Shown: piece after piece, positions 742 to 59,012 of the stretch
Numbering within the stretch: the first letter of the stretch is position 1
How the letters are laid out: every line of letters begins with the position of its first letter
NCBI GenBank assembly: GCA_041665365.1
Contig: JBAYIY010000001.1
Coordinates: 104,720-168,719, forward strand
DNA from: Patescibacteria group bacterium
GTDB lineage: Bacteria > Patescibacteriota > Patescibacteriia > UBA9570
Reading direction: 5' to 3'
Length of the DNA stretch: 64,000 bases
Translations under genes and position numbers: made by a program
The notes under the pieces: generated by a model
Database searches by the model: none
What the model was told of the DNA's origin: nothing
Seen by the model: only the letters and a program-made list of their open reading frames with translations

Positions 742-744
742 AAT

Positions 745-29683: not shown

Positions 29684-30316
29684 CTACTCGCAGCCCTCAT
29701 CGACTACGAAGTCGCAATCGTTGTCCTGCCCGTCGCAGAGCTCGGGCGCTCCGGGGTAGACACTGTCGTCCCCTTCACTACAGTCGGCATCTTCGACCAT
29801 CAGCGCCCACCCATCGGGCTGAGTGCAGTCGACAACTCCATTGAACGGGTTGATGTACCCGTCCTCATCCTCATCCTCGTACCAGGTAGACGGGCCAGCA
29901 ACATCTGAGTCGGCGTCGTCACAGTCAGTGGAGGCCGCCACCCCGTCGCCATCGGAGTCGGGCCAAGTACCCTCGTCGATGTCTCCATCGCAGTCGTTGT
30001 CGAGACCGTCACACAACTCCGGGGCTCCGTTGTAAACCGTCGCATCGCCGTCGTCGCAGTCGGTCGCATCGGCCAGGTACCCATCGGGCTGAGTACACGA
30101 CATGATGGGACTATCCTCCTGACCATGACCGTCCCCGTCATCGTCAGAGTGCCAAATCTCAGCTAACTCTGACGTCACGCCTTCAATGCAAACATCGTTG
30201 AGGTTGCAGCCGGAAAGCAGAAACAAAGAAATAGAGATAAACATGAATACCTCACATGTTGGTGGCCTGGGGTTTGGCTGTGGTTGAAAGTAAAACCCCG
30301 CGCTTGCCATTACCAC
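29684..30316 (-). CDS. GC-rich secreted lipoprotein with MopE-like Cys-rich repeats (CDGxDNDCDGxxDEG)
   Basis: ORF of 210 aa. Probable start at the internal MFISISLFLLSGC lipobox (about 30247). Repeats ATDCDDGDATVYNGAPELCDGLDNDCDGDIDEG and SEGDDSVYPGAPELCDGQDNDCDFVVDEG. Local GC is about 58% against an AT-rich background. Confidence 0.55.
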   Translation of the reverse strand: MVMASAGFYFQPQPNPRPPTCEVFMFISISLFLLSGCNLNDVCIEGVTSELAEIWHSDDDGDGHGQEDSPIMSCTQPDGYLADATDCDDGDATVYNGAPELCDGLDNDCDGDIDEGTWPDSDGDGVAASTDCDDADSDVAGPSTWYEDEDEDGYINPFNGVVDCTQPDGWALMVEDADCSEGDDSVYPGAPELCDGQDNDCDFVVDEGCE

Positions 30317-34984: not shown

Positions 34985-35073
34985 GAGGACTTTTGAGAGG
35001 GTGAGGTTAGCTGGCTTGCCAGCCGGAGTAACGAACCTTGTGAGTTACGTAGGCTGGGGCGGTAGGGTTCGAA
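34985..35073. repeat. Island repeat R2 ending in an exact 21-bp copy of the tRNA-Gln 3' end (GCTGGGGCGGTAGGGTTCGAA, 35053-35073)
   Basis: GAGGACTTTTGAGAGG...GTAGGCTGG followed by CTGGGGCGGTAGGGTTCGAA, identical to 57466-57486. Confidence 0.7.
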
Positions 35074-35141
35074 AATCACCTTTGATTTCGAAGCTCATCC
35101 TAAATTATCAATAAATACCAGTGTCGCAGGTTAGTCGAGCA

Positions 35142-35681
35142 TCACAATGACGGTGTAGAAATGACGGCTTTGATCTGTGTGGAGTTGGCATGCCACCAGG
35201 CTCGGATCTCATCGGCTTTGCCGACCCCGCTAAACTGATTGACGGAAAATGCATTGCCTGCAAGCGCTGCTTGTTCGAGCTGTCTGCGCAGTTCTCCACC
35301 CACTCTGGAAGCTGCGTAGGAAGATATAGTTGTATTCAAGGCATCGTTTGACATCTCTCCCGTGAACATAATCGTACCGGTTGTCATCGTTGCGGAGTCC
35401 GTTGCCCCCATTGCGTTGAGTGACACGATGTCTGGGCTCCCATCGGCGGCGAGAAGGTCATGCAATTCAGATGCCTTCTCGGGTACGACCAAGCGGACAA
35501 GTACTTCTACCTGATCAGTGCCCTGACTCGCCAACATCGCGTCGAGATTCTGCTCGTACGCCGTCGCACCAAACGGTGGTTCTCCATTGCTTGCCGGCTG
35601 TGACGGAAGCCCAATTTTACAGCCAGTCGTGAGGCCGAGAAGGATGACGACGGTGGCGTACGCATATGTTCGCATAGGCAT
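35142..35681 (-). CDS. GC-rich lipoprotein, hypothetical
   Basis: 179 aa with lipobox LGLTTGCKI. Local GC is about 55%, far above the background. Confidence 0.45.
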   Translation of the reverse strand: MPMRTYAYATVVILLGLTTGCKIGLPSQPASNGEPPFGATAYEQNLDAMLASQGTDQVEVLVRLVVPEKASELHDLLAADGSPDIVSLNAMGATDSATMTTGTIMFTGEMSNDALNTTISSYAASRVGGELRRQLEQAALAGNAFSVNQFSGVGKADEIRAWWHANSTQIKAVISTPSL

Positions 35682-35756
35682 ATTTTAGGCCTGGAAAGCC
35701 AGTGCTGTCAACAGCCCGCGGAGACGGGCTATACAACCTGACAGGTCCAGAACCTA

Positions 35757-36000
35757 GACCACCAAGGCTTTATCGGTCAGCTTATTCCGGGTCTCTTGGC
35801 CAAGCATGCGCTTCTCGATCCATTTGTCTGATCTGCCTAGTTCCTGCCAATTTTCTCGAGCTCGATTAAGACCCAACTCTGGATCAACAGTTTCTTGTAA
35901 GCGCTCATAACCAACTTTAGCTAGCCATTGTTTAAATGGTTCTGCTTTACTAAAATACCATTTCTCCTCGGCTTCAGCCCAAATACGACGGACTGGGCTA
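35757..36000 (-). pseudogene. C-terminal gene remnant (about 80 codons, no start codon)
   Basis: The reverse frame translates to SPVRRIWAEAEEKWYFSKAEPFKQWLAKVGYERLQETVDPELGLNRARENWQELGRSDKWIEKRMLGQETRNKLTDKALVV*. The open frame runs into repeat R3 at about 36003. Confidence 0.3.
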
Positions 36001-36003
36001 TAT

Positions 36004-36160
36004 GAGGACTTTTGAGAGGGTGAGGTTAGCTGGCTTGCCAGCCGGAGTAACGAACCTTGTGAGTTACGTAGGCTGGACGTACTGGTCTAGAACCTAGACC
36101 AGTCGGGGTTTATTGGGATTAGATTTCGAGTTACCTACAGGGTTGATGGGTCACCTAAAT
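36004..36160. repeat. Island repeat R3 (same as R1 plus the GAGGACTTTTGAGAGG head)
   Basis: GAGGACTTTTGAGAGGGTGAGGTTAGCTGGCTTGCCAGCCGGAGTAACGAACCTTGTGAGTTACGTAGGCTGGACGTACTGGTCTAGAACCTAGACC...GGGTCACCTAAATGAGAC. Confidence 0.6.
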
Positions 36161-45189: not shown

Positions 45190-46733
45190 ACACAGCTGAA
45201 CAATTTGCGATTATCAGCAGCACAAAATCGGTACGGAAAGCTATAACAATGCAATCGCATTTTTGGTTTTTTCATGTTTACCTTAATCAATATATCACCT
45301 ACGAAACGGCGCCGTTTCATCGAGAAATGTTACAGCTGACTGAAAACCCACAATTGAGTTTATTGGTCTTTATGGCGTTCCGGGGTTCTGGCAAATCCAC
45401 TATCTTATCCTTGTCCTATCCCTTATGGGCCTTGCTAGGGAAGAAAAAGAAACGCTGTATCTTAATTTTAAGTCAGACCCAGTATCAAGCGCAGTCATTA
45501 TTGCAGCACATTAAACATGAACTGGAGGAAAATATTTTATTACGTAAAGATTTTGGACCATTTGTCACACGCACTACGCAATGGAGCGCGGACACCATTG
45601 TTATTCCTCGGTACGATGCCAAAATTATTGCTGCTTCTACAGAACAAAGTATTCGTGGAATTCGTCATGCAGAAGTAAGGCCCGACCTCATTATTTGTGA
45701 TGATATTGAAGATTTGTCATCAGTTAAAACCATGGAGTCAAGAAACAAAACATTTCAATGGTTAAGTGGTGAAATCATCCCTGCCGGTGACCGACACACG
45801 CAGACCGTCATTTTAGGAAATTTACTACATGAAGATTCCTTGCTGATGCGGATCAATAAACTGATTGATGATGACCGGATTGATGGTATTGTAAAACGCT
45901 ATCCCATCATCTCAGAGGGCAAACCTTTGTGGGCTGCTAAATTTCCTAACGAAGCGAGTCTGGTTCAGGAACAGCGTAAGATTGGTAATCCCATTGCCTG
46001 GAAACGCGAATTTGAATTACAAATTGTACCCGAAGATGGACAAGTCATTAGCTATGATGATATTCATTATTACGACACACTCCCTGAACCCAAGGAACCA
46101 GAACAGCGAGAGCTGGATGATTACACAAATGTTATCCGTTTAGAAAAGGTCTGTACTGGTATTGATTTAGCCATTAGTAAAAAAGACTCTGCAGACTATA
46201 CAGCAATGGTTTCTATTGAAATATTTAGTTTTGAGCACGAGGAAATTAAATTCTATGTGTTGCCGCACCCTATCAATAAACGTCTTAGTTTTGCCGAAAC
46301 GATTGAACAGGCGGATAATATTAGTAAACGTTTAGGTAAAACGCATCCTACTCAACTCTACGTCGAGCAGGTAGCTTATCAGGCTAGTGCTGTGGAAACC
46401 CTCAAGGAACGTCGTCTGCCGGTGGAAGGCATTACTGTGACCGGGGCAGATAAACGAGCCCGATTACAAATCGTCTCACCTTTGATTGAACAAGGCCAGA
46501 TCCTGTTTCCACGTACGGGTGCAGAGGATTTAATTGCCCAAATCGTTGGATTTGGAGTAGAGCGCCATGACGATTTACTAGACGCCTTTACCTTAGTCAT
46601 CATGCAGGTGATGAATATGCGGCCAGCTTGGCAGCTAAGTGATATGAATAATGAACCCATTAAACGGATGCGCATGTACAGTAAATGCGTACCAGGAGGC
46701 TACTTTGATCCCCCAAACTGGAACATTATCTAA
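45186..46733 (+). CDS. terL: Phage terminase large subunit
   Basis: 515 aa. Walker A FMAFRGSGKSTILS, Walker B LIICDDIED, and a C-terminal RNaseH-like nuclease (TGIDLAISKKDSADYTAMV ... DDLLDAF). Confidence 0.75.
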   Translation: MNTAEQFAIISSTKSVRKAITMQSHFWFFHVYLNQYITYETAPFHREMLQLTENPQLSLLVFMAFRGSGKSTILSLSYPLWALLGKKKKRCILILSQTQYQAQSLLQHIKHELEENILLRKDFGPFVTRTTQWSADTIVIPRYDAKIIAASTEQSIRGIRHAEVRPDLIICDDIEDLSSVKTMESRNKTFQWLSGEIIPAGDRHTQTVILGNLLHEDSLLMRINKLIDDDRIDGIVKRYPIISEGKPLWAAKFPNEASLVQEQRKIGNPIAWKREFELQIVPEDGQVISYDDIHYYDTLPEPKEPEQRELDDYTNVIRLEKVCTGIDLAISKKDSADYTAMVSIEIFSFEHEEIKFYVLPHPINKRLSFAETIEQADNISKRLGKTHPTQLYVEQVAYQASAVETLKERRLPVEGITVTGADKRARLQIVSPLIEQGQILFPRTGAEDLIAQIVGFGVERHDDLLDAFTLVIMQVMNMRPAWQLSDMNNEPIKRMRMYSKCVPGGYFDPPNWNII

Positions 46734-46806
46734 GAGAAAGTTACCAACAAGTTACCTACAGCTGTCACTGGATAGCCTACAAAGGGTGTGACATTACTGT
46801 AGATAG

Positions 46807-48120
46807 ATGATTACCACTACCCTAGATACAACTCGAGTCAACCTTAAGTACTGCCTGTATGCGCGTAAGTCTTCAGAGGAAGACGAACGGCAAGCCATGT
46901 CGATTGAATCACAAGTCAATGAAATGCTGCAGCTTGCTGAGCAACAGGGGCTACAGGTCACTGATATCCGCCGTGAGGCCCATTCAGCTAAAAATTCAGG
47001 CCAGCGCGAAGTCTTAAATACTCTCTTGGCAGATATTGCCACAGATATGTTTGATGGAATACTCACGTGGGCGCCAGATCGATTAAGTCGTAATGCTGGC
47101 GACCTAGGCTCAATTGTCGATCTGATGGATCAAGGGCACATCAAAGAAATTCGTACCCACGGCCAGACGTTCAGCAATTCACCTAATGAAAAATTCCTAC
47201 TGATGATTCTGGGTTCTCAGGCCAAGCTGGAAAATGATCACCGGGGTCTTAATGTGAAGCGCGGCCTACGGGCCAAAGCCGGTACGGGCTGGCGTCCAGG
47301 GATGCCGCCACTTGGATACAACATCATGAAAGCGATTGGACCAAATGACAAGAAGATTGTGATTGATCCAGAGCGAGCTGAGACGATCCAACTGATCTTT
47401 AAAAAGGTAGGGCTCTATGGGTTTAGCGGCCGGATGATTCATCGCTGGTTAAAAGAAGAAACTCCCTTTACTACACGTAGTGGTAATATGCTGGCACTAA
47501 GCGCCATTTTCCGCATGATGAAAAATCCATTTTACTATGGCATGTTCGAATTCCCTGAGGGCAGCGGTAACTGGTATGTTGGTAAACATGACCCACTCAT
47601 TACGAAAGATGTCTTTGATGCTGCTAATGAACAGATGCAGCGGCCAGATACTGAAATAACAGTCTGGGGAGCAAAGAATTTTCACTTTACACAACTCCTC
47701 ACCTGCGGAGGATGTGGTTCAGGAGTAACCGCAGAAGAAAAGTTTAAAAAGTTGCTCGATGGAAGTAAGAGGCGGTACGTGTATTATCACTGCACACGAG
47801 GACGTGATGTGAACTGTGCCGAAAAGTTTATTCGGGAAGAGGAACTTCTAAAACAACTACTGTACATTATTGATCAGGTTGATTTAAACACGATTGCAGC
47901 TAAGCGAAAATTCCAGGAAGAACTAGAACGCTTCAGAAAATTTGCACGAGGCGTGCTTGGACAGGTGACAGATGGCTCAACTGGCCAAAAAGTCGTTGAT
48001 ATGAAGATGTATGTGAGATATGTGCTGCAAGAAGGAACTAGAGAAGAGAAGCAGGAGATACTAAAATGTTTGGATAGTAAGCTGATGTTGAAGGATCAGA
48101 AAGTGAATATTGAAAATTAA
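46807..48120 (+). CDS. Large serine recombinase (integrase/resolvase family)
   Basis: 437 aa. N-terminal resolvase domain with catalytic Ser (LYARKSSEEDERQAMSIESQ), a recombinase domain, and a zinc ribbon CGGCGS...YYHCTRGR. Confidence 0.8.
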   Translation: MITTTLDTTRVNLKYCLYARKSSEEDERQAMSIESQVNEMLQLAEQQGLQVTDIRREAHSAKNSGQREVLNTLLADIATDMFDGILTWAPDRLSRNAGDLGSIVDLMDQGHIKEIRTHGQTFSNSPNEKFLLMILGSQAKLENDHRGLNVKRGLRAKAGTGWRPGMPPLGYNIMKAIGPNDKKIVIDPERAETIQLIFKKVGLYGFSGRMIHRWLKEETPFTTRSGNMLALSAIFRMMKNPFYYGMFEFPEGSGNWYVGKHDPLITKDVFDAANEQMQRPDTEITVWGAKNFHFTQLLTCGGCGSGVTAEEKFKKLLDGSKRRYVYYHCTRGRDVNCAEKFIREEELLKQLLYIIDQVDLNTIAAKRKFQEELERFRKFARGVLGQVTDGSTGQKVVDMKMYVRYVLQEGTREEKQEILKCLDSKLMLKDQKVNIEN

Positions 48121-48380
48121 ATTTCTGATTTTTCTATATTCTTCTTGAAACAATCTTCAACTTGCTTCCAATTCTCATTCAAATAATATTGTATGCTTGC
48201 TATACTACATACTTCACAAGTAATGTTTAGTGACCGATTATCACAAATTTTGTTTACAAAATTAGGTTCAGTTTTAACATCATGAACGCTAAATATTTTA
48301 TTATTAGCTTGTTTTACTAGTAATACGTTTCCTGGATTTTTTAGAGGATTAACTTTAGGCATAAAGATATAAGATAACAA
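48117..48380 (-). CDS. Hypothetical small protein
   Basis: 87 aa, ORF only. Confidence 0.25.
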   Translation of the reverse strand: MLSYIFMPKVNPLKNPGNVLLVKQANNKIFSVHDVKTEPNFVNKICDNRSLNITCEVCSIASIQYYLNENWKQVEDCFKKNIEKSEI

Positions 48381-48451
48381 GTTAGTCTTGTTGGGTTAAA
48401 AAACAAACGTTCTGAGTATGGTGACAACTGGCCTCAGCAAATCAGAGGTGC

Positions 48452-48793
48452 TTATTGATTATTTTTTAAATCATTAAGTGACTTGATCTTGTTCTCTTTT
48501 AAGTAGGTACCCAGATGCATATCTGAACGAACTTTTAGATTCAATCTATATTGCTGTTCAATGGTACCAATATGAGTGTCATCACGCTTATCGCGTAATT
48601 GGCCACTTTTATTGCGGGAACGATATCCACGCATACCTGGTGCGTCTTTTGCCATATCAATTTTAACATTAATTTGGAAGAGCTCGACCACATCTCTCCG
48701 ACTGCTTAATGCAGTCTGCTGCAACCTGCAACAATCGGAACATGAGTAGAACGGCTGAGACCAGCTCACCGAAATATATTGTATAATTAGCAC
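48452..48793 (-). CDS. Hypothetical small basic protein
   Basis: 113 aa, ORF only. Overlaps the next ORF's 3' region. The real extent is uncertain. Confidence 0.25.
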   Translation of the reverse strand: MLIIQYISVSWSQPFYSCSDCCRLQQTALSSRRDVVELFQINVKIDMAKDAPGMRGYRSRNKSGQLRDKRDDTHIGTIEQQYRLNLKVRSDMHLGTYLKENKIKSLNDLKNNQ

Positions 48794-48837
48794 TCTCCAT
48801 AGTCAAGTGCCAATTATTATCTATCAACCAACTTAGG

Positions 48838-50331
48838 CTATGAAGCAACTGAAGCTGATGGCTTGTTATCGTCTCTGGCATCAATAAGAATAATATTTTC
48901 TTGCCCACTCATTTCTAGTGCCTTAAGGATATGATCAACGCCGATTTTTTCCTGCTCAGAAAAATAGAAAATAACATAGATACCCTTATCGGTAGCATTC
49001 GCTTCTTTATAGATTTGCAATTGCTTTTGTAAATTTGTTCTCAGATGGGTGTTACTGGCTAATTTAAATTCGACCATTGTTTTATCGGCCGCGCCCATAG
49101 ACACCTTAAAATCAGCTGGGCCTCTACCATTATTGACCTCTGCATTAAAATCATACTCTGAACCATACCAAACCAGTTTAAAAACTATTTGAAAATCTGA
49201 CTCTCGTTTCACAGGATGACCATCAATATAAAATAGCTTATAGCCATCTTGTTTTTCAATAACATCCTTTAGATATTTAATTCTACGCATGCTTTCTGCG
49301 TACGAATTAATTGGCGTTCTTAAAAAATTGGTATTTTTACCAAGTAGCTTTAGAAGTTCCTTAGTATTCTCAATAAACAGTTGTTCAGAAAACTGAACCT
49401 TCAAATCACTTATTGCTTCAGCCTGGTCACCTGTTTTTTCTTTATAGCGAATGTAGTGGTCAATTACCTCAGGGAATTCTTTAATAGCTCTTTGTCCGGC
49501 TTCTTTCTTTTGTTTATCTTTAGAATCATCAGGAAGTACTTTTTGAAAATATCGATCTAAGTTACTTCTTAAGTTATCATCATCAATCGCATTTCCAATA
49601 CTTACAACTTCTTTTACTAAATCTGGATAATTAATCCAACTTTCATCTTTAGTCAATAAATCTTTCGGTGTCAAGATAATGTAGTCACCATTATATGTAG
49701 GAAGAATATATTGCTTTTGTACCCATGTTTCTGTTTTATAATTAAACCAGACTCTGCTTACCGCAAATTCTCTACATAACGCAGGATCAATATACTCCCT
49801 TGCAAACTGTGCCGTATACTCTAGTAAGAAACCTTTTATTAGATTAACAGTAAAATCACTTATACTATCTCTGCCAACACCCGGTTGAATAAGACCTAAT
49901 TTTTCAAGATGGCTACTAGCCGTAATTTGTTCTTCGCCAAAATTTCTTAAAATCGAAGACAACCCGGAATGCAGCGCCTTGGCAAATTTTGGTCCCAGGC
50001 CACGCCCCTTATTTCCGCCGACTGTGAAACCAAACCAATTCTGTTCAACTTCCTTAAAATGAAATAACTCTTTTCTTAAACCAGATGAGATAGTTTCATG
50101 CCTTATAGAAATTTCTCTCAAGAAACGAAGATACTTGAGAATTTCCAAATGTAAATTCTGATATACTTCCTTTTCACTGTGAAAAATTAAAAATGGATCA
50201 ATAAACAATGGTAGGTCAGTCACTAAACTTATATTAAACGCCCCGTATTCCTCTAAATGTTGTGGAGGCACCTTAAAATAGTCACTAAATAGTAGACTGG
50301 GCTCAGATGTAGGGAGTGTTTGAGCAATCAT
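48838..50331 (-). CDS. Hypothetical 497-aa protein with possible C-terminal PD-(D/E)xK-like motif
   Basis: C-terminus GPADFKVSMGAADKTMVEFKLASN...GIYVIFYF. No confident family assignment. Confidence 0.4.
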   Translation of the reverse strand: MIAQTLPTSEPSLLFSDYFKVPPQHLEEYGAFNISLVTDLPLFIDPFLIFHSEKEVYQNLHLEILKYLRFLREISIRHETISSGLRKELFHFKEVEQNWFGFTVGGNKGRGLGPKFAKALHSGLSSILRNFGEEQITASSHLEKLGLIQPGVGRDSISDFTVNLIKGFLLEYTAQFAREYIDPALCREFAVSRVWFNYKTETWVQKQYILPTYNGDYIILTPKDLLTKDESWINYPDLVKEVVSIGNAIDDDNLRSNLDRYFQKVLPDDSKDKQKKEAGQRAIKEFPEVIDHYIRYKEKTGDQAEAISDLKVQFSEQLFIENTKELLKLLGKNTNFLRTPINSYAESMRRIKYLKDVIEKQDGYKLFYIDGHPVKRESDFQIVFKLVWYGSEYDFNAEVNNGRGPADFKVSMGAADKTMVEFKLASNTHLRTNLQKQLQIYKEANATDKGIYVIFYFSEQEKIGVDHILKALEMSGQENIILIDARDDNKPSASVAS

Positions 50332-50684
50332 ATTTAAACAAGTTCACCCTTAAACGCTTTTTGCATCAATGCTTGAAATTGGGTTTCTATTTTTACAGAT
50401 TGAACATGCATGGTTTGTTTTAGGGATTCTGTTTTTTATAAAATTTGAGCAAATTTCGTTTAAAACTTAATAAGTCTATTTGTTGAATTCTGAATAATTC
50501 CAAGTTTCATAATGATTATATTACTCCCTAATCGGTAACATTACTAATGTAAAAAGGATGCCCCGGACACAATCGTGAGATCATGCCGGGGCGAAGTACA
50601 GGAACGGATCACGTTGCCGTGACGGTGTTCACTGTTGGTCTGCGTTGCAAAGAACGAGCTGCTGCACCGTAGCCTTCCTAGGGT

Positions 50685-53516
50685 CTACAACCCATAGCCA
50701 TAGCTGAAGGTCCAAACACCAGTCTGGCTCCCGTTGGGGGTGATGGTGTCGGTGCAGTGGAGCAGAGCACCTCGCACGACGCAGATGCCGTCAGTGCCAT
50801 CACCGTCGAAGTCCGCGAAGTACCACTGGCTATCCAAGGTGGTATCACCGAAGGTGAACCAGTAGTCGTAGACCCCAGAGGTATTGTCGTCGACGTAGAA
50901 CCGGTTACCTTCACGGAAGATCAGGTCAGCCAGGCCGTCACCGTTGAGATCGGCCAGGTAGTAGTCGTCGGCTCCGTTGCCCGTACCGTAGTACAGGTAG
51001 GTGTCCATGATACCGTCGAGATTGCGGTCGATCTGGAGCTGGCTGCCAAAGCGAGCTGCGATGGTAGTGTGCCAGTACAAGAACTGGTCAGCGGACACGT
51101 CCGCATAGACCAACACGTAGTCGGCGATGCCGTCGGCACCCATGTAGTCGTAGTAGCTGGTGCGGCCGGAACGCCAGATGATGTATTCTCCCGTTCCGAT
51201 CACTTCGCCCGGAACCGTCCACGTGCCGTAGAGGCCGTCGTAGAGGCAGAGCAAGGTGGTTGCACGCCGGACGCAGGGATCATCGTCACCGTTGCCGTCG
51301 AAGTCGAAGAAGATGTATTGATCCTCGAAGAGGAAATCTTCATCGATCTCGCCGTCACAGTCGTTGTCGAGGTCGTCGAGGAGTTCGGGAGCACCCGGAT
51401 AGGTGTGGTCAGCCGTGTCGTCGCAGTCGCCGTTGGTGCTGGACCAACCATCGTAGTCGTTGTCACCGACTTCGTCGGTCACCCCGTCACAATCGTTGTC
51501 GAGACCGTCGGGAATCTCTACGGCATAGGGGTTGATGTTGTTGCTCTGTTCGGAGCAGTCACCCTGGTCGTAGGACCAACCGTCACCGTCGAGGTCGAAG
51601 GCTTCGTCGATCAGGGCATCACAGTCGTTGTCGAAGGTGTCCCACAGTTCCGGGGCACCCGGGTAGGTGTGGTCGGCCGTGTCGTCGCAGTCGCCGTCGT
51701 CGGGGGTGTAGGAGTCGTAGTCCTGATCCAGATCGTTGTCAGCCACTTCGATGTAGACGAATGGAGCAGTGCAGTCAGACTGCAGACCACCAAAGTTGCC
51801 GAACAGCAACGTGCCATCCGTCGGCAGGTTGCTGACGATGTCCTGCTGATCTCCCTGTTCTTCGAAGGTCGTGGCACTGGTGTGCTGACCCAAGTAGAGC
51901 GTGCCGGAACTGTTCAGACGGAGCAGATCAGGGTAGTCGTCGTTGTAGTCGAGCGGGTAGACGAAGTAGTCTCCGTCGGTGCCACCGACATCGTTGGCCA
52001 TCGTACTGACACTCAGCCACTGCAGCGTGCTGCTGTACTGGGCCAGGTAGGCTTCCACGGTGCTGTTCGTTTCGTCGATCCGCAGGAAGTCGTCCCGGCC
52101 ATCGGCATCGGCATTGAGGTTCGACACGAGGTAGGTGTTGCTGGGTGAACCCCAACCGGTCGCGATGGTCGCACTGTTTCCAGTTGTATCCAAGCGCTGC
52201 CAGCCCAGTTCGACTCCACCGCTGTTGGTGGTGCCGACCAGGATTTCACCCTTACCGTTACCGTTGAAGTCTCCGACCAAGAAGTGACTGTCGGTGGAAC
52301 CGAAGGACTCACTCCAGGTGGTCAGGTCAGCGAAGTCGCTGCCGATGTTGGTGCCGATCCGCCACTTGATGCTGCTCCCATTGGGATAGCCGAGTACCAG
52401 GTCCAGATCGTCGTCGTTGTCCATGTCGGTCAGGAAGGCGTGGCTGTAGCCGTTGTTGGCCTTCAGCCAGCGATCGCGACCGACGAAGGTGCCATCACCG
52501 TTGCTGACGTACACCTGAACGTAGGTGTAGTTGCCGTTGTCCGTGACGTTGACGATATCGTCGTTACCGTCATTGTCCAGGTCGCCTACCAGCCAGGTGT
52601 TGACGTTGTTGGTGTTGCCCAGGCCAGTCATGGTGTAGCTACTGTCGGGCAGCTTGAGGCTGACGCTGTTCCCAGAACCGGTGTGGTAGTAGGGTTTGAT
52701 GGTGAAGGTGTGGGTACTGGCGTCTGCGGTGACGGTGAGCAGGTGAATGGTGTAAACGTCGGAGGTGCAGGTGGAGACTTCGGCATTGTAGGTCGGAGGA
52801 CAGCTGGCCCAGAGGTAGTCTGAGTCAGTTGCTGCATCGCAGTCGAAGTCCGAATGCTGGCTGGAAGTGCCTTCGTTGGGACAGCCATTCGGGATATCAC
52901 AGCAGGTAGCGTTGTCGTCATTGAGGTTGTAGGGATCGAGCCAGTAGTCATGACTGAGGTACTGAAGTGATCCGTAGTCCTGAACGCCGAAATGGAGATG
53001 CGCGCCGTCAGAGTAGCCCGAGTTACCCATTTGACCGATGAGGGTGTTGGAACTGACGGAGTTGCCGACCGCCACGGTGATAGAACCAGACACGAGATGA
53101 GTGTACTTGGTGGTGTAGTCGTAGATGCTGTCACCATCCACATCATGCTTGATATCCACGAAGCAGCCCCAAGTAGGATTTCCATTGGGGTACGTATTAG
53201 GACAGTCACTGTTCTGGATATTAGACACGACACCAGAAGCGGCGGCGTAGACGTTGTCGCCTTCGTCGCCGTCGAAGTCATATCCACCGTGGCTCGCGGG
53301 CAACGGATAATAATCGACTTCATACTGCGCGGCAGAACAACTCACACTGTAGTTCCAGGCACCGCCATTGATCTCGACGCTGTTGTTGTGGATCGGCAGA
53401 ACGAAGGGACCATAGGCCAGAGCCTTGGTGGTGGGCAAGAAGAAGCCCAGGATCATGAGAAGCAGAACGAACAGAGGCTTGCGCATTGGAGTTTCCTTTT
53501 GACTTTGAATTGTCAA
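50685..53516 (-). CDS. GC-rich secreted multidomain protein: M23 peptidase + FG-GAP/VCBS-like repeats + MopE-like Cys-rich repeats
   Basis: 943 aa, signal peptide. M23 motif HLVSG...GQMGNSGYSDGAHLHFGVQDYG. FG-GAP-like repeats LVGDLDNDGNDDIV, FLTDMDNDDDLDLVLG, LVGDFNGNGKGEILVG. Repeats YPGAPELWDTFDNDCDALIDE and YPGAPELLDDLDNDCDGEIDE. GC is about 58%. All overlapping ORF-track ORFs in this span are antisense artefacts. Confidence 0.65.
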   Translation of the reverse strand: MTIQSQKETPMRKPLFVLLLMILGFFLPTTKALAYGPFVLPIHNNSVEINGGAWNYSVSCSAAQYEVDYYPLPASHGGYDFDGDEGDNVYAAASGVVSNIQNSDCPNTYPNGNPTWGCFVDIKHDVDGDSIYDYTTKYTHLVSGSITVAVGNSVSSNTLIGQMGNSGYSDGAHLHFGVQDYGSLQYLSHDYWLDPYNLNDDNATCCDIPNGCPNEGTSSQHSDFDCDAATDSDYLWASCPPTYNAEVSTCTSDVYTIHLLTVTADASTHTFTIKPYYHTGSGNSVSLKLPDSSYTMTGLGNTNNVNTWLVGDLDNDGNDDIVNVTDNGNYTYVQVYVSNGDGTFVGRDRWLKANNGYSHAFLTDMDNDDDLDLVLGYPNGSSIKWRIGTNIGSDFADLTTWSESFGSTDSHFLVGDFNGNGKGEILVGTTNSGGVELGWQRLDTTGNSATIATGWGSPSNTYLVSNLNADADGRDDFLRIDETNSTVEAYLAQYSSTLQWLSVSTMANDVGGTDGDYFVYPLDYNDDYPDLLRLNSSGTLYLGQHTSATTFEEQGDQQDIVSNLPTDGTLLFGNFGGLQSDCTAPFVYIEVADNDLDQDYDSYTPDDGDCDDTADHTYPGAPELWDTFDNDCDALIDEAFDLDGDGWSYDQGDCSEQSNNINPYAVEIPDGLDNDCDGVTDEVGDNDYDGWSSTNGDCDDTADHTYPGAPELLDDLDNDCDGEIDEDFLFEDQYIFFDFDGNGDDDPCVRRATTLLCLYDGLYGTWTVPGEVIGTGEYIIWRSGRTSYYDYMGADGIADYVLVYADVSADQFLYWHTTIAARFGSQLQIDRNLDGIMDTYLYYGTGNGADDYYLADLNGDGLADLIFREGNRFYVDDNTSGVYDYWFTFGDTTLDSQWYFADFDGDGTDGICVVRGALLHCTDTITPNGSQTGVWTFSYGYGL

Positions 53517-53620
53517 CGTACTATCTTGCTGTAGCCTTGTATGGCGAGCAAGTCAGGGTGAGGATTCACCGCTGAAGCCATCTCATCAATCCGGTGCTGA
53601 TGAGATGAATCAGGAGTGAA

Positions 53621-54388
53621 TTAGAATTGTAAAGAGTTCAATAGTGTGTCAGGATCTATACCGGTAGCGGCTTCATCTGTTAACCTAATTTCTAATGTTT
53701 TTTCGTCTGAGTCTAAGTAATAATACTCAGCTACATCTTGAAGTTTATGGTCTTCATCGACTGGATAATTACCAGTTAGTCCTTGCACTCTAAAATTTTC
53801 TCCATAATATTGCTGGACTGAGTAGGTAGTTTCATTGACTACATTGTCATAACTACCGTCTGGCCTGGGTCCGAGTACAGATTGAACAGAATTGATTTCA
53901 CTCGTTGTTGGGTGAGCAACAATACTATCGAAAAGAGTAATTCTTACTGGATCTATCTGTAAATCAGTTCTATCAATCATAAATACAGCGCCGGCATCGT
54001 CAATAAAGTCGGCTCGGGTTGATTTACTAACACTTACTGAATAAATTTTTGGATACTTAAAACTAAACCCATACTCCTCATTCGTATAAGTTAGCCAATC
54101 GCTGGTATCGAGAACCCCTTCATCAACTGTGACTTGCTCCCAATCACTAGTATCTACTTCACTTACTATTTCTGTATTTGTATTCTCATTGGTTAAATTG
54201 GTATTTTCATTAACTACAGTGACATTTATATTTTCGTTGGTATTCACTTCGGCATTTGTATTCACTGGGTTTACATTAACAATCTCATTAGTGACGGCCA
54301 CCGTATTTACATTCGTCGATGGACCCGCACACCCAGTCAGTGTCAGAGCAAAAACTGCTGCTGTAGTTAAAAATAGTTTTTCTTTCAT
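53621..54388 (-). CDS. Lipoprotein with N/T/V-rich low-complexity linker, hypothetical
   Basis: 255 aa. Lipobox LTLTGCAG and an NVNTVAVTNEIVNVNPVNTNAEVNTNEN linker. Confidence 0.45.
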   Translation of the reverse strand: MKEKLFLTTAAVFALTLTGCAGPSTNVNTVAVTNEIVNVNPVNTNAEVNTNENINVTVVNENTNLTNENTNTEIVSEVDTSDWEQVTVDEGVLDTSDWLTYTNEEYGFSFKYPKIYSVSVSKSTRADFIDDAGAVFMIDRTDLQIDPVRITLFDSIVAHPTTSEINSVQSVLGPRPDGSYDNVVNETTYSVQQYYGENFRVQGLTGNYPVDEDHKLQDVAEYYYLDSDEKTLEIRLTDEAATGIDPDTLLNSLQF

Positions 54389-55348: not shown

Positions 55349-56122
55349 TCATTCGCTTCGACCTACTACCACATTATTATGCTGCGTAACAAGCTCTGGT
55401 TTAATCTTTTGACGCTTAAAAATCGTATTGGGAACACCAGGTTGTTCAAACGCTATTTTTTCAACAATAATCTGGTAAATGGATGCAAAAATATCCTCGT
55501 CAGAAAATGTTAGTCCAGCTTTCTTTTTGAGGGCACGGCGTAAGAGATTACCAACCTCTGTGGAATAAAGGTACTTGCACAGATTATTTGGCTCGAGTGC
55601 CTGAAACCGAAGCCAGAAATCATCCAGCTCATTTTTCAACATGCTGCGTTTGGTCATCATCGCAAAATACTCAATGGATTGTTTGAGTTGGGCTTTATCC
55701 TTGAGGTCAAATGAACAGATGCGTTTATGCGTAATCGGTTTTTTAAAGACTACTCGATACAGTGAAAAGACTCTGCCGTTAGTGAGTAACACCCAGTCTA
55801 CACCTTCATTAGCGGCATAATTAATGGATTGGTAAATATGCTTATCCGACAAATCAATCTGGATAGCTTTCACTTCAACGATGATATACTTTTTGCGTTG
55901 GACTTGGATAATGTAATCAGCGTAGGTATTATTGATCTGGTACTCTGTTTTAATCTCATCCAGTTCAGCATAACCCAGTACCTCTGTTAGAAAACTATTA
56001 ATCATCAGGCGAGTAGCTGACTCATCTAACGTCTCGTATTTCTTCGACAGGTAACGCTTAGCATACTCTTTGAGTCGTTTAGCTATTTGGTCTTTTTGAG
56101 TTTGTGTAGGCATAGTGATCAA
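55349..56122 (-). CDS. Restriction-endonuclease-like (PD-(D/E)xK, HsdR-N/Mrr-type) protein
   Basis: 257 aa. ADYIIQVQRKKYIIVEVKAIQIDL (D...EVK core) plus VDWVLLTNGRVFSLY. Confidence 0.45.
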   Translation of the reverse strand: MITMPTQTQKDQIAKRLKEYAKRYLSKKYETLDESATRLMINSFLTEVLGYAELDEIKTEYQINNTYADYIIQVQRKKYIIVEVKAIQIDLSDKHIYQSINYAANEGVDWVLLTNGRVFSLYRVVFKKPITHKRICSFDLKDKAQLKQSIEYFAMMTKRSMLKNELDDFWLRFQALEPNNLCKYLYSTEVGNLLRRALKKKAGLTFSDEDIFASIYQIIVEKIAFEQPGVPNTIFKRQKIKPELVTQHNNVVVGRSE

Positions 56123-56125
56123 AAG

Positions 56126-57058
56126 TTATAAGGAAAGCATTAACTCACCCTCAACTAGTCCAGCACGAATGCTCGGGTGGATAGATTGGTATTCAGTATT
56201 ATCCTGCATAGTTTGGTAGATGGGCTGAAACTCTAAGTTTTCCCAGTTAAACTTTTCAAATGTCTCTTTTCCCATCTGCAAACCAACTGCATCTTTTATA
56301 GATTCAGCTCCAAATTCGTCAACGAATGGCACCTGGTAAGAGATGTCAACATACTCTACCCCATCAACCCTGAAAGCCTCCTGACCAAATTTGATGAAGT
56401 CAGTATATGTATCTTCGACTAAGTCTTGCTCGTCCCAAAAGGTATCTTGTGTACGTGTTAGCCATGCTGTCTTATATTCCTCGTCCCATTGCACATCATA
56501 ACCATTGCGTGTCCTGATGCTATCGTCTAAAGCAATCCAGAGTTTATCTAGTGTCGTTGGTTCCGGCTTAGGTTCTTCTTTGACTTCTTCAACCACAGCG
56601 GGAGCAACTTCTTCTTGAACGGGTTCCTGGACCACATTGGTATTTGATACAACGGGAGCATTAACTACATCTGCCGTATTGGTATCTTCGTTTGGTACCA
56701 CTTCGTTCGTATTCACTACTGCGTTAGTAGCTACGTTGGTATTCTTATTAGTGTTTTGAGCTATTTTAGCTGTATTGTCCGTCGAGCTCGGAAAAGTAAA
56801 TATTGATGCTGCAATGAAAAACGTACCTATAAAGAAAGCCATGAGACGAGGTATTTTTTTATGAATTATACTCTCAAACCATTGACGTGATGGTGGAAGC
56901 AGTAACAACCCGAGCAGTAGCATGGCTAGTCCTGATACAATGCTGCTAAACACGAGCAAGATACTGATGAATATAATGACGATGCCAAATACCCATCCAA
57001 GGATGTGGTTACCTTCTTTGGCGGAAGGTGTTGTGACTTGCGAATTTTCGCTGGCCAT
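56126..57058 (-). CDS. Membrane protein with N/T/V-rich low-complexity region, hypothetical
   Basis: 310 aa with two N-terminal TMs. NTNKNTNVATNAVVNTNEVVPNEDTNTADVVNAPVVSNTNVV. Confidence 0.45.
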   Translation of the reverse strand: MASENSQVTTPSAKEGNHILGWVFGIVIIFISILLVFSSIVSGLAMLLLGLLLLPPSRQWFESIIHKKIPRLMAFFIGTFFIAASIFTFPSSTDNTAKIAQNTNKNTNVATNAVVNTNEVVPNEDTNTADVVNAPVVSNTNVVQEPVQEEVAPAVVEEVKEEPKPEPTTLDKLWIALDDSIRTRNGYDVQWDEEYKTAWLTRTQDTFWDEQDLVEDTYTDFIKFGQEAFRVDGVEYVDISYQVPFVDEFGAESIKDAVGLQMGKETFEKFNWENLEFQPIYQTMQDNTEYQSIHPSIRAGLVEGELMLSL

Positions 57059-57384
57059 ATTGTTGTGTAGTTAGGGATTTGTTAGATTGGTTCAGAAAAC
57101 ACAAAGGGTCCCCTGAACCAGCGACAGCCCTTACGGAACTGCCACCCATCCTTTCGAATGGGTACCCTAACTACAAGATGCTGATCAGGAGACCTTCTCT
57201 ACGTAGTTAGGGATTTATAACCATGCCGCTGGAAATCAACGGTTTAGGCCATTAAATTGTATTTAAAGTATAGCTTGAAAAGCACCAGAAAGAAAGTCTG
57301 GGATTTTGAAGTTACCAACAATCACCCCATTCAAGCCACGTGCAAGCATGTGGGGTTTTAGACCCAAACTGGGACACTGACTCA

Positions 57385-57413
57385 CAAAACAAAAATCCTC
57401 GCGGTGTACGAGG
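57385..57413 (-). terminator. Rho-independent terminator downstream of tRNA-Gln
   Basis: Minus sense reads CCTCGTACACCGCGAGG (hairpin) followed by ATTTTTGTTTTG. Confidence 0.5.
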
Positions 57414-59011: not shown

Positions 59012-59012
59012 A

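Follow-up and report, generated by a model that had tools for sequence, protein, structure and literature searches.

A GC-rich transcription unit for a predicted secreted M23 peptidase in a Patescibacteria genome looks like a long-kept family trait

MopE repeats abound in Myxococcota-like lineages. Two described systems bear on the locus reported here: UmbA4, whose teichuronic-acid-binding propeller determines species specificity (PMC13274773), and the Borrelia vls gene-conversion locus, which has a GC content of 49% versus 28.6% in an AT-rich genome (PMC11499132). Our locus lies in a stretch of 64,000 nucleotides (the window) from a member of the Patescibacteria, a tiny bacterium with, probably, a parasitic lifestyle. 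The window had a GC content of 41.2%, with 1-kb bins of 58-59% at 51-53 kb compared with 33-48% in the other bins; in 100-nt steps, GC rose from 0.25-0.41 in the flanks to 0.56-0.66 between approximately positions 50600 and 53600, and was 0.36 at 53601. The sharp GC anomaly that an initial annotation placed at 50560-53580 was thus confirmed by exact sliding-window computation, both in extent and in size (GC 0.575 for the gene within it). Against a background of 59 ORFs (GC3 0.356±0.052, maximum 0.49), three ORFs stood out, all on the minus strand like every feature below unless marked (+): 50685-53516 (GC 0.575, GC3 0.76, z=7.7), 29684-30316 (GC 0.58, GC3 0.66-0.68, z=6.3) and 35142-35681 (GC 0.54, GC3 0.57, z=4.1); the window ORFs included no further composition outliers. 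Since the three proteins would have an expected GC3 of only 0.34-0.39 under background codon usage, their GC excess is synonymous. In the first ORF, which holds the M23 gene, third positions were 0.05 A and 0.57 C, and the sense codons TTA, CTA and TCA numbered 0, 0 and 3. The near absence of these codons explains the long antisense ORFs, which the ORF listing showed, as had been claimed, to be confined to GC-rich DNA (one of 463 aa, at 50757-52148(+), shares the register of the sense codons). Across M23 family loci, such in-register open stretches varied from 161 to 769 codons.

By its sequence, the GC-rich block at 50561-53620 is a single, complete predicted transcription unit, with a leader, a coding sequence, a 3' untranslated region and a terminator. 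The coding sequence (50685..53486), delimited by the ORF, Pfam matches and homologue N-termini, specifies a 933-aa secreted M23/beta-propeller/MopE protein. The mechanical ORF of 943 aa reaches a TTG at 53516; the ORF itself stood but its start did not, because the homologues all begin at ATG 53486 and an AGGA lies upstream, making this ATG the most likely true start (MRKPLF...ALA/YGPF). The leader, from the stop of the partner gene to the M23 start (53487..53620), contains three predicted hairpins and the AGGA ribosome-binding site. Its mean column identity was 76% among the window and loci L001, L003, L004 and L012, and one run of 28 nt, GAGATGGCTTCAGYGGTGAATCCTCAC, is invariant among them and occurs once in the window, whereas synonymous sites in the coding DNA beside it were saturated. 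An Rfam search of the leader gave no match, and covariation support for the hairpins was thin (3 of 29 pairs). On the other side, a GC-rich 3' untranslated stretch runs from the stop codon (50592..50684; GC 0.56 in 50601-50700) to a terminator-like hairpin, CCCCGGCATGATCTCACGATTGTGTCCGGGG, followed by a T-run (50561..50591), which was read from the sequence and would close the unit. This hairpin occurs once in the window and was absent from a consensus terminator scan because its loop is longer than the scan allows; a near-identical hairpin lies 3' of the M23 gene of L015, whose protein is just 43% identical. Non-coding DNA 3' of the M23 gene was likewise GC-rich in L001 (0.54), L002 (0.63) and L018, whereas L016 and L017 lacked this feature. 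We counted the GC-richness of the window gene's 3' untranslated region toward selection on the nucleic acid, and the composition of the L016 and L017 regions against it.

Its motifs mark the 933-aa protein as a Sec-secreted, catalytically intact zinc endopeptidase of the M23 LytM/lysostaphin type. The Sec signal peptide, MRKPLFVLLLMILGFFLPTTKALA, recognized in the translation (53415..53486), has a predicted cleavage site before YGPF and contains no lipobox, and the ALAYGPF junction is invariant in the M23 family alignment. The M23 (LytM-type) metallopeptidase domain (52971..53294; PF01551, 58.8 bits, cut-off 28.7; residues 75-182 in the 943-aa numbering; core GNSGYSDGAHLHF) has intact HxxxD (SHGGYD), catalytic His (YTHL) and HxH (AHLHF) motifs, whose residues are invariant or near-invariant in a 12-member alignment and are spanned by PDB alignments to 9gy1 and 6jmx; Foldseek matched the fold of this domain to DipM, lysostaphin, Csd1/2, ShyA and LytM. 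A Cys-rich family-specific linker follows (52767..52970; YWLDPYNL..ATCCD.P.GCP.E...H..FDC..A...YLWASCPPTY), which the alignment showed to be an invariant block in the five closest family members and which was of low confidence in the AF2 model. The next region, a variable beta-sandwich with a lectin-like FG-GAP beta-propeller (51777..52766; FG-GAP_3, 39 bits), is proposed to be a targeting module; the AF2 model had a pLDDT of 73.7 overall and 80-95 over residues 245-570 (propeller). In this region, identity with any homologue is only 29-39%, while L001 and L004 share 81% with each other. Three MopE repeats, Cys/Asp-rich and putatively metal-binding (51333..51740; PF11617, 71.7 bits in three stretches), have a 132-nt DNA period and correspond to repeat family D2 of the DNA (51325-51697); of the 16,311 matches in a representative search, most were to the MopE region alone. 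The same search delineated a C-terminal FG-GAP-like domain (50688..51320; DFDGNGDDD..., DLNGDGLADL...) common to P0145 (query 723-933, 94% identity) and P0279 (712-933, 40%), the latter having two copies. A full-length structure model had a pLDDT of 34, leaving the C-terminal third without structural support. The Pfam scores for M23, FG-GAP_3 and MopE all exceed their cut-offs, and the domain calls of the initial annotation were upheld, as was its view that the three products are secreted or lipid-anchored (a signal peptide in the M23 protein; lipoproteins for the small genes).

Directly upstream of the M23 gene, in the same orientation in all ten loci, is a partner gene, which in the window is an AT-rich gene for a PsbP-like lipoprotein (53621..54388; GC3 0.28; lipobox LTGC and a DTSDWLTYTNEEYGFSF.YP motif); PsbP_2 matched six of eight partner proteins (best E 1.6e-6). 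Genes around the pair vary by lineage, and in a Kerfeldbacteria MAG the pair adjoins EF-Tu and the ribosomal-protein operon. GC3 was 0.51-0.82 (mean 0.72) in the M23 genes versus 0.21-0.51 (mean 0.33) in the partners (Wilcoxon p=0.002), with most partners at 0.21-0.34. The M23 alleles are separated by saturated synonymous divergence (dS at least 1.0), all retaining a GC3 of 0.69-0.81, and the amino-acid composition of the window M23 gene is host-like (GARP 0.213 versus a background of 0.206). Polarised synonymous changes, in small, parsimony-based counts, comprised 34 GC-to-AT and 20 AT-to-GC, whereas amelioration would predict approximately 5:1. Because the same contrast is seen at ten related loci, the GC-richness of the M23 family, in synonymous sites and untranslated regions, looks like a stable, long-kept trait rather than the scar of a recent arrival from a GC-rich donor.

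Alleles of this family also appear to move. L004 and L012 share 1.7 kb of sequence at 100% identity that ends at the start codon, past which identity falls to 52-80%, and L001 and L011 match at 100% across the 2,458 nt of partner plus M23, with a neighbouring orthologue at 48% amino-acid identity; these swaps were read from metagenome contigs, in which strain-level chimeras could mimic them. In addition, phylogenies of the M23 protein domains conflict. At the sequence level, these comparisons show apparent recombination of whole M23 alleles between related genomes of AT-rich composition, in the manner of a polymorphic effector locus, with the catalytic head kept while binding modules are swapped.

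The other two GC-rich genes differ from the M23 gene, and from each other, in their histories. The MopE gene, which is separate from the M23 unit, most likely starts at ATG 30244 and would encode a 186-aa lipoprotein (MopE186; 29684..30244; GC3 0.68, PF11617 twice), shorter than the 210-aa ORF; this product is 100% identical to NCBI MFA6474706.1, and the junctions of the gene are reproduced in L006 and L007. Its mRNA structure z was -2.24, and the gene may be under the same kind of constraint as the M23 gene. The 179-aa orphan lipoprotein (35142..35681), by contrast, had no match in Pfam and only a self-match among 5.8 billion proteins, and its mRNA structure z was +0.31. It lies with a truncated gene fragment in an insert (34985..36076) bounded by perfect direct repeats at 34985-35057 and 36004-36076 (73 nt at 100% identity by blastn; a pattern search gave 72 nt without a mismatch, against a chance expectation of 0), and the same structure is present in JGI contig L008 at 99.76% identity. 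Because of these repeats, the adjacent truncated gene, the GC-type amino-acid composition (GARP 0.296 versus 0.206) and the lack of homologues, it is probably a recent insertion, the sole one of the three genes to fit that description.

In all ten M23 family members, the native coding sequence was more stably folded than its synonymous shuffles (whole-gene shuffles, z -0.4 to -6.2; block shuffles, mean z -3.5), whereas 47 control genes centred on zero. Specifically, 16 window genes had a mean z of -0.11 and 18 flank genes +0.09 (Mann-Whitney p=1.7e-5 for the family versus the flank genes), and 13 that lie within or next to GC-rich stretches ranged from -3.55 to +1.44, 11 of which came from L002 (-1.21 to +1.44); the value of -3.55 belongs to gene3 of L003, which has the same codon signature as M23. 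The signal is a trend of the family and is weak in the window gene (z -2.35 with whole-gene and -1.23 with block shuffles). The excess amounts to 1-5 kcal/mol per 120 nt, which alone may be too small to account for a 40-point shift in GC3.

Several other origins for this composition were weighed. It is extremely improbable that a chimeric assembly fused the gene of a GC-rich organism to an AT-rich contig, or that the true gene is one of the long antisense ORFs. Although the protein search returned same-genome neighbour proteins but no exact 933-aa match, the AT-rich partner/GC-rich M23 junction and the conserved leader across it recur in contigs from the other loci examined, which differ in sample and assembler. 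The window ORF is uninterrupted and comes with a signal peptide, a ribosome-binding site and a terminator; the Pfam domains and homologues fall on the sense strand; and the scarcity of TTA, CTA and TCA accounts for the antisense stretches. Three independent assemblies (an ENA 365-kb contig, Logan SRR6484324 and JGI 3300037810) likewise contain the junctions of the two small genes, at 99.8-100% identity, and the mis-assembly that the initial annotation had named as a possible refutation appears to be ruled out at the level of sequence. The same annotation regarded the three genes as recent acquisitions from one high-GC lineage (Myxococcota-like, for example), not yet ameliorated. Their strongly atypical composition, the Myxococcota or Deltaproteobacteria names of the best non-self matches of the MopE lipoprotein, the position of the M23 gene in a region rich in defence genes and mobile elements, with a serine recombinase and a terminase 2.5 kb away, and the insertion hallmarks of the 179-aa gene would fit such a donor, but we consider it very unlikely. 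The M23 gene is GC3-rich beside the same AT-rich partner at 10 of 10 loci with saturated dS, has a host-like amino-acid composition, and lacks a predominance of GC-to-AT substitutions; the Myxococcota matches reflect the repeat motif, at 35-45% identity, and MopE repeats occur in AT-rich genes too (the P0016 orthologue of MopE186, 64% identical, with GC3 just 0.42, and an S8 peptidase of L002, GC3 0.37). Codon signatures also differ among the three genes, Glu being 80% GAA in M23, 79% GAG in MopE186 and mixed in the 179-aa gene, and GGG having a share of 6% in M23 versus 33% in MopE186, which argues against a common donor. Searches of 5.8 and 15 billion proteins, and of viral contigs, phages and plasmids, turned up no donor with a GC-rich context. 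What stands of the proposed horizontal acquisition is the mobility of M23 among AT-rich relatives and the probable recent insertion of the 179-aa orphan. A somewhat less doubtful, though still unlikely, alternative is that M23 alleles evolve on unseen GC-rich elements or phages and are repeatedly recombined into the chromosome, so that every chromosomal copy is young. The L002 pair lies within a block of at least 15 kb with 55-60% GC, abutting genes of 41% GC and containing an integrase, PIN, HTH/M78 and a methylase; allele swaps break at start codons; the conserved leader and terminator could act as recombination anchors; and dS between the window and L001 was 0.30 in the N-terminus and 1.7 in the flank. 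However, the L002 M23 gene has a lower GC3 (0.57) than copies in AT-rich contexts (0.68-0.82) and only a weak structure excess (z -0.4 and -0.85), whereas the excess is present in the copies from AT-rich genomes; the 11 L002 island genes showed no excess synonymous structure; the viral contigs, phages and plasmids held no relatives; and the L001/L011 transfer carried the AT-rich partner along, between AT-rich genomes, arguing, with the host-like amino-acid composition, against such a reservoir.

GC-biased gene conversion, in which very frequent recombination of divergent alleles drives AT-to-GC fixation, a process suspected at other recombining loci, is improbable. The mosaic alleles and swaps indicate intense recombination, G- and C-ending codons are both enriched together with some non-coding flank, and Borrelia vls offers a precedent for a GC-rich recombining locus in an AT-rich genome, but the co-transferred partner, approximately 130 bp away, is not GC-enriched; the GC boundary is sharp, within 100 nt, at the transcript ends; the N-terminal part, the most conserved and pairable, has the lowest GC3 (0.68 versus 0.80); the window has no silent cassettes; G or C runs are not clustered (25 C runs of at least 3 observed, 35 expected); and biased conversion would not yield structure in excess of synonymous shuffles. 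Extremely high expression, with M23 using the optimal codons of the organism, is highly improbable. Two-fold boxes favour NNC over NNT (0.80 against 0.2-0.3), the EF-Tu and ribosomal-protein genes of the relative L017 also lean to NNC (0.44-0.76), and the codon shift vectors correlate (r=0.38). Yet these L017 genes prefer A/T-ending four-fold codons and avoid GCG (0.09), CCG (0.10), ACG (0.11) and CTG (0.04), whereas the adjacent M23 gene has ACG 0.47, CCG 0.47, GCG 0.36, AAG 1.0 and CAG 1.0; M23 GC3, at 0.80, is far above the 0.34-0.55 of ribosomal-protein genes, GroES and GroEL of L002 are AT3-rich, and the non-coding untranslated region is GC-rich as well. Selection acting on the nucleic acid itself is the most likely reason why the GC-rich, structured transcript is kept. 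It might pay off by prolonging the life of the mRNA, or by slowing the translation of a dangerous wall hydrolase through a dependence on rare codons. With moderate confidence, we favour a joint reading in which the locus encodes a peptidoglycan hydrolase that is polymorphic and surface-targeted, and in which such selection maintains its GC-rich, structured coding sequence.

The enzyme would be exported via Sec, its propeller and MopE modules would bind an envelope polymer of another cell, either the epibiont's host or a competitor, and the M23 domain would then cleave peptidoglycan cross-bridges; the partner lipoprotein may anchor, chaperone or neutralise the enzyme. The earlier suggestion of a host-directed wall hydrolase is plausible, for a host or a competitor, because the organism belongs to the Patescibacteria/CPR, and it gains support from the propeller, whose best PDB fold match is UmbA4 (9oee_A; Foldseek E 3.4e-10, 369 columns). 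Compared as an AF2 model, the window protein would thus resemble UmbA4 in its propeller fold, that of a cell-wall-glycopolymer lectin.

The base composition of the window (41.2% GC) changes abruptly at the gene for a large secreted protein with an M23 peptidase domain (50685-53486, minus strand; the M23 gene). We found 58-59% GC in 1-kb bins at 51-53 kb and, in 100-nt steps, a rise from 0.25-0.41 to 0.56-0.66 at about 50600 and a return to 0.36 at 53601, bearing out the anomaly that the initial annotation had placed at 50560-53580. Three of the 62 ORFs in the window were outlying by third-position GC (GC3), for which the background was 0.356±0.052 with a maximum of 0.49: the M23 ORF (50685-53516; GC3 0.76, z=7.7), that of a lipoprotein with MopE repeats (29684-30316; GC3 0.66-0.68, z=6.3) and that of a 179-aa lipoprotein (35142-35681; GC3 0.57, z=4.1), all on the minus strand. 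Under background codon usage the three proteins would be encoded with an expected GC3 of 0.34-0.39, and the excess is therefore synonymous rather than driven by amino acids. Specifically, the M23 gene has 57% GC, as against 41% for the window, a third-position GC skew of -0.52 (a C-rich coding strand), and a product with a GARP content (0.213, compared with 0.206 for the window background) like that of the AT-rich host; the 179-aa protein has a GC-type composition (GARP 0.296), and no codon signature was common to the three genes. The long antisense ORFs noticed earlier are present, the largest being in register with the sense codons and open because TTA, CTA and TCA are nearly missing from these; an overlapping antisense gene was ruled out, since the open stretches are not conserved across the family. 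A chimeric assembly, about which the initial annotation had cautioned, is suggested by nothing that we found: the window is 100% identical to a 365-kb ENA contig and to Logan contigs and 99.76% identical to a JGI contig, and in these contigs the junctions of both small GC-rich genes recur.

The likely start of the M23 gene is the ATG at 53486, with AAAGGAAAC upstream, giving a protein of 933 aa. The N-termini of all homologues follow the pattern MR/CK..LF...A.A and then YGPF, a Sec signal peptide without a lipobox. Pfam searches matched Peptidase_M23 (PF01551; 58.8 bits against a cut-off of 28.7, E 6.4e-16), FG-GAP_3 (PF13517; 39 bits against 26.9) and three MopE repeats (PF11617; 71.7 bits), and the Peptidase_M23 profile was also matched by all family members examined. 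Both the domain calls made earlier (M23, FG-GAP and MopE) and the predicted secretion were thus right. The zinc motifs HxxxD and HxH and the catalytic His align with those of solved M23 enzymes (SHGGYD with SYHSGTD of PDB 6jmx, GAHLHF with GPHLHF) and are conserved in 12 family members, in whose alignment H66, D70, H130 and H163 are invariant or nearly so; the second His of AHLHF was read from the sequence. A full-length AF2 model built on a five-sequence alignment was unusable (pLDDT 34), and residues 1-575 were modelled with 12 sequences instead (pLDDT 73.7; 80-95 at residues 245-570 and 73-85 at residues 68-180). The M23 part of this model matched the LytM domain of DipM, lysostaphin, Csd1/2, ShyA, LytM and EnpA at probability 1.00, and by profile, motif and fold the product is a putative peptidoglycan endopeptidase of the M23 family. 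Residues 295-570 are modelled as all-beta with high confidence, and the top PDB fold match over residues ~245-570 was UmbA4 (9oee; E 3.4e-10, 369 columns), integrin alpha chains also being listed. The lectin UmbA4 is a beta-propeller; it binds teichuronic acid and determines the species specificity of the umbrella toxins of Streptomyces (PMC13274773). From the fold similarity and the hypervariability of the region (29-39% identity), we infer that the propeller is a putative module for binding surface glycopolymers and setting specificity. The architecture is new, within the known kinds of M23 lytic enzymes, propeller lectins and MopE repeats, and we hold with moderate confidence that the predicted enzyme acts on the wall of another cell.

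The window also carries type IV pilus genes, the shikimate pathway, two heliorhodopsins, sortase and FtsEX. The sortase gene adjoins that of a 776-aa ice-binding-like/SpaA-fold surface protein (61014-63964, minus strand), and the FtsE and FtsX genes adjoin that of a DPBB (RlpA-like) protein (58097-60424, minus strand), so that further cell-envelope genes lie near the M23 locus. A stretch rich in defence and mobile-element genes (37146-50331 and 55349-58070) flanks the M23 gene and its upstream neighbour. It encodes SngA-like, HEPN, Shedu SduA (E 4e-30) and PDC-M36A-like (E 1e-23) proteins, a ParB-methylase, a second N6/N4 methylase, a terminase large subunit, a large serine recombinase, an HSDR_N_2 protein and a DUF559 endonuclease. 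A full-length LOOT RNA (Rfam RF03000; 71.3 bits against a gathering threshold of 46.4) lies at 57123-57250 on the minus strand, between a 310-aa ORF and tRNA-Gln. In addition, the 719-aa protein P0253 (NCBI MFA6474791.1), encoded by a full gene outside the window, is an M23/FG-GAP/MopE paralogue; it appears to belong to the same MAG as the window, its accession being 85 away from that of the MopE-repeat lipoprotein.

By standard practice, recent horizontal transfer is called on the basis of atypical GC content and codon usage, and the initial annotation had read the M23 gene as a likely recent import, suggesting a common high-GC donor. Its relatives tell otherwise. We compared DNA context at ten loci, two duplicates not being counted and true family members being few. 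At all ten, the M23 gene lies about 100-130 bp downstream of a co-oriented gene for a PsbP-like lipoprotein (53621-54388, minus strand, in the window; hereafter the partner). GC3 at these loci was 0.51-0.82 (mean 0.72) for the M23 gene and 0.21-0.51 (mean 0.33) for the partner (Wilcoxon p=0.002). The other partner proteins are 18-52% identical to that of the window, with G19 and C20 of its lipobox (LTLTGC) invariant in eight orthologues, and the genes beyond the pair differ by lineage; for example, those in the Candidatus Kerfeldbacteria MAG (L017) are EF-Tu and a ribosomal-protein operon. Although M23 alleles have diverged to saturation at synonymous sites (dS 1.0-2.1), their GC3 stays at 0.69-0.81, and polarised synonymous changes, counted on few short branches and in small numbers, were 34 GC-to-AT and 20 AT-to-GC, whereas about 5:1 would be expected under amelioration. 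No GC-rich donor was found among 5.8 billion and 15 billion proteins, viral contigs, phages and plasmids, the searches of viral contigs, phages and plasmids yielding only generic M23 domains, and the exact 933-aa protein was absent from the protein collections searched. Named family members are assigned to Patescibacteria, Kerfeldbacteria or simply 'bacterium', apart from one contig titled 'uncultured Gammaproteobacteria'. The contexts looked up were all AT-rich, except one mixed (L003) and one GC-rich (L002), and the copy in this sole GC-rich context has a GC3 of 0.57, below those in AT-rich genomes. As regards insertion scars, a serine recombinase gene lies 2.5 kb from the M23 unit with two AT-rich ORFs between, and searches for flanking direct or inverted repeats gave chance-level matches only. 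Thus, among the marks of a horizontal island, the M23 gene shows atypical composition, and patchy presence, a donor clade and amelioration or donor-like amino acids were not found. The constant linkage to an AT-rich partner, the saturated dS, the host-like GARP content, the failure to find a donor and the lower GC3 in L002 together do not support a recent high-GC import. We conclude with high confidence that the excess is family-wide and old, and atypical composition gives the wrong history for this gene.

The contig with the copy in a GC-rich context (L002) is itself heterogeneous, with at least 15 kb at 55-60% GC (1-14855) abutting genes at 41% GC (15258-21637). The former encodes thymidylate kinase, ACPS, a phage-type integrase, PIN, HTH/M78, a methylase, three Cys/Asp-rich secreted proteins, the partner and the M23 protein; the latter an S8 peptidase with MopE-like repeats, Wzy and GroES/GroEL. 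The block may represent an integrative element, a GC-heterogeneous genome or a chimeric contig. The GTDB-representative MAG with the closest homologue (L001/L005) bears the title 'uncultured Gammaproteobacteria bacterium', which conflicts with its gene content and was given no weight here; the record is probably mislabelled, as gene content and relatives point to Patescibacteria.

Recent acquisition from a common high-GC donor, as first suggested, holds at most for the 179-aa gene and fails for the M23 gene, and the codon signatures differ. The MopE-repeat lipoprotein (186 aa; 29684-30244, minus strand; lipobox LLSGC) has two MopE repeats (66.6 bits), is 100% identical to NCBI MFA6474706.1 from 'Patescibacteria group bacterium', and has a 64%-identical orthologue in another context whose gene has a GC3 of 0.42; MopE-like repeats also occur in the AT-rich S8 peptidase gene of L002. 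The 179-aa lipoprotein (lipobox LTTGC; all three lipoboxes were read from the sequence) is an orphan, with no homologue among 5.8 billion proteins, which is compatible with recent acquisition. Its gene lies with a truncated ORF fragment (36002-35760, ...WLAKVGYERLQETVDPELGLNRARENWQELGRSDKWIEKRMLGQETRNKLTD; no Pfam match) in a 946-bp insert bracketed by perfect direct repeats of 72/73 nt (34985-35057 and 36004-36076), a partial copy of 49 nt being present at 32909-32957. The insert looks like an insertion or duplication scar, and the 179-aa gene fits a recent insertion. Two heliorhodopsin paralogues (33143-33913 and 36261-37031, minus strand; Pfam E 1e-99 to 1e-101), 2.3 kb apart, stand on either side of the insert; they are 81.6% identical in nucleotide sequence, downstream regions included, and the 179-aa gene and a 344-aa ORF lie between them. 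A 27-nt motif, TAGTCGCAAYYGAGACARYRTGATATC, occurs four times on the minus strand (29558-29584, 33067-33093, 36186-36212 and 37077-37103), compared with zero copies expected. Two copies lie 25-70 nt upstream of the starts of an FKBP gene and heliorhodopsin 2, and the motif may serve this organism as a promoter or operator.

The M23 gene is NEVERTHELESS mobile among AT-rich relatives. For example, two loci (L004 and L012) are 100% identical over 1.7 kb, comprising two partner paralogues and the leader, and 52-80% identical exactly from the M23 start codon; two others (L001 and L011) share 2,458 identical nt spanning partner, leader and M23 gene, the next upstream genes being orthologues with 48% amino-acid identity. 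These four are metagenome contigs, in which strain-level mis-joins are possible. Trees of the domains also disagree: over residues 1-240 the window protein is 93% identical to that of L001, whereas over residues 241-430 L001 is 81% identical to L004 and the window protein 29-39% identical to all others. As read from the sequences, the locus behaves like one for a polymorphic effector: the catalytic head is conserved, and the putative binding modules are swapped.

The GC-rich block holds, besides the coding sequence, a leader of about 130 nt, a 3' UTR of about 95 nt and a terminator-like hairpin (50561-50591), and so spans one whole transcription unit. The leader (53487-53620, minus strand, in the window; 5233-5366 in L001, 345-454 in L003, 1805-1936 in L004 and about 1650-1794 in L012) is conserved far beyond neighbouring synonymous sites, with an invariant run of 28 nt and three predicted hairpins with variable loops. 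RNAalifold recovered the three hairpins with almost no covariation, and neither leader nor UTR matched Rfam, so we make no claim to an RNA family; nor was the leader motif found upstream of other GC-rich genes or in more distant loci, and there is thus no signal of a shared regulon. The leader could be a candidate regulatory RNA, an operator or a recombination anchor. The 31-nt terminator hairpin (minus strand) is virtually identical at about 6465-6500 of L015, where the M23 protein is 43% identical to that of the window and the C-terminal domains are unrelated.

What maintains the composition may be sought in translation, in recombination or in the nucleic acid itself. Translational optimisation was ruled out by comparison with the ribosomal-protein genes and EF-Tu of the Kerfeldbacteria MAG, which favour NNC codons and avoid G-ending ones (GCG 0.09, CCG 0.10, ACG 0.11) and have a GC3 of 0.34-0.55, whereas the M23 gene of the same genome has ACG 0.47, CCG 0.47, AAG and CAG 1.0 and a GC3 of 0.80. 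Three observations speak against GC-biased gene conversion, which would raise GC3 at a recombining locus: the partner, 130 bp away and transferred together with the M23 gene, is AT-rich; the change in GC is abrupt and falls at the ends of the transcript; and GC3 is lowest in the most conserved part of the M23 gene. We also compared native coding sequences with synonymous-codon shuffles for mRNA structure in 120-nt windows. Native sequences were more stably folded in all ten family members, with whole-gene z values of -0.4 to -6.2 and a mean of -3.5 when shuffled in 60-codon blocks; in the window's own gene the effect is modest (-2.35 and -1.23, respectively). Background genes had mean z values of -0.11 (16 in the window) and +0.09 (18 flank genes at other loci; Mann-Whitney p=1.7e-5 against the M23 genes). 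Thirteen further controls were taken in or beside GC-rich stretches: 11 in L002 (ten island genes at 51-60% GC and the partner at 48%) gave -1.21 to +1.44, one in L015 (8405-9478) -0.69, and one in L003 -3.55. The two small GC-rich genes gave -2.24 (MopE-repeat lipoprotein) and +0.31 (179-aa gene). The L003 gene (3878-4807), with an M23-like codon signature (A3 0.06, C3 0.55, GC3 0.82), encodes a secreted protein with a proprotein-convertase P-domain and MopE repeats, suggesting that it and the M23 genes form a small class.

Most economically, these results are read as selection acting on the nucleic acid, either for a transcript that is GC-rich and structured or for structured ssDNA, and we have moderate confidence that selection for transcript structure maintains the GC3 excess. 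As to the benefit, we suggest with low confidence longevity of the mRNA, slowed or rare-tRNA-dependent translation of a dangerous hydrolase, or efficiency of transfer. It is conceivable, though on balance doubtful, that Patescibacteria keep polymorphic secreted effector genes recoded in rare G/C-ending codons, with a structured transcript, by long-term selection that persists across horizontal transfers. Such a gene-specific, composition-based layer of control could make translation starvation-proof, or slow and coupled to secretion; it could make mRNA extremely long-lived where ribosomes are few, or stabilise ssDNA in favour of transfer by transformation. If this is true, such GC islands, where they occur in AT-rich genomes, would mark function, not foreign origin. 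A 40-point GC3 excess persists beside an AT-rich partner across ten loci and documented transfers and, if selection on the nucleic acid holds, would represent a rare bacterial case of synonymous constraint on a whole gene, comparable to Borrelia vls without the cassettes. The M23 gene is also a good candidate for an enzyme with which ultra-small epibiotic CPR bacteria would open a partner cell's wall or attach to it; the swapped lectin-like modules could encode the host range of these lineages, and metagenomes could be searched for the whole family by its conserved features, namely the partner lipoprotein, the leader and the terminator.

Among known systems, UmbA4 (PDB 9oee; PMC13274773) and the window protein are both Ca-loop beta-propellers, and in both UmbA and the window protein the binding module is strain-diversified and the remainder conserved, which fits species-specific recognition of surface glycopolymers. 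However, the two share 16% sequence identity, the window protein lacks the trypsin-like domain and the UmbB and UmbC partners, and its propeller, for which carbohydrate binding is putative, is fused directly to a predicted lytic enzyme. With M23 enzymes of the lysostaphin/LytM/zoocin type, the product shares complete zinc and catalytic motifs, the M23 fold, secretion and a catalytic domain with a separate binding domain, and here too a neighbouring gene could protect. In contrast, the lysostaphin type is targeted by SH3b, whereas the window protein has a beta-propeller and MopE repeats, and an N-terminal catalytic domain followed by a family-specific Cys-rich linker; the neighbour is a FemABX-type immunity enzyme in the former and a PsbP-like lipoprotein in the latter.

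The vls locus of Borrelia is a GC-rich (49%, against 28.6%), GC-skewed recombining locus in an AT-rich genome (PMC11499132). Like it, the M23 gene recombines, is hypervariable, keeps its G+C across strains though sequences differ, and has a strong third-position skew. The sign of the skew is opposite, however, the M23 coding strand being C-rich, and the M23 locus lacks a silent cassette array and clustering of G-runs or G4-like sequences, the last being ruled out as C and G runs are not enriched in the gene. Its variation reflects allele exchange between genomes, whereas that of vls is intragenomic gene conversion; within the window, no further M23 copies were found beyond MopE-repeat matches.

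In Streptomyces, the bldA/TTA regulon exemplifies control of expression by rare codons, and Elf and colleagues reportedly put forward a theory of selective tRNA charging in 2003. The M23 gene likewise uses codons that its genome seldom employs and that ribosomal-protein genes avoid, and the window carries dedicated tRNAs for such codons, tRNA-Thr(CGU) and tRNA-Pro(GGG). By analogy, rare-codon control of its expression may be a lead, although the known cases involve, to our knowledge, one or a few codons and never the recoding of a whole gene of 933 codons. In the searchable literature we found nothing comparable, whether on codon usage and GC-rich genes of CPR bacteria or on M23 enzymes of epibionts. 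Finally, acquired islands of atypical composition are said to decay by amelioration, as reportedly described by Lawrence and Ochman in 1997. With such classical islands the M23 gene shares atypical GC content and codons, sharp boundaries and a location in a variable, defence-rich region near recombinase genes, but its composition is family-wide and set beside an AT-rich partner, its substitution is near-stationary and its amino acids are host-like, indicating that it is not behaving as a decaying import.
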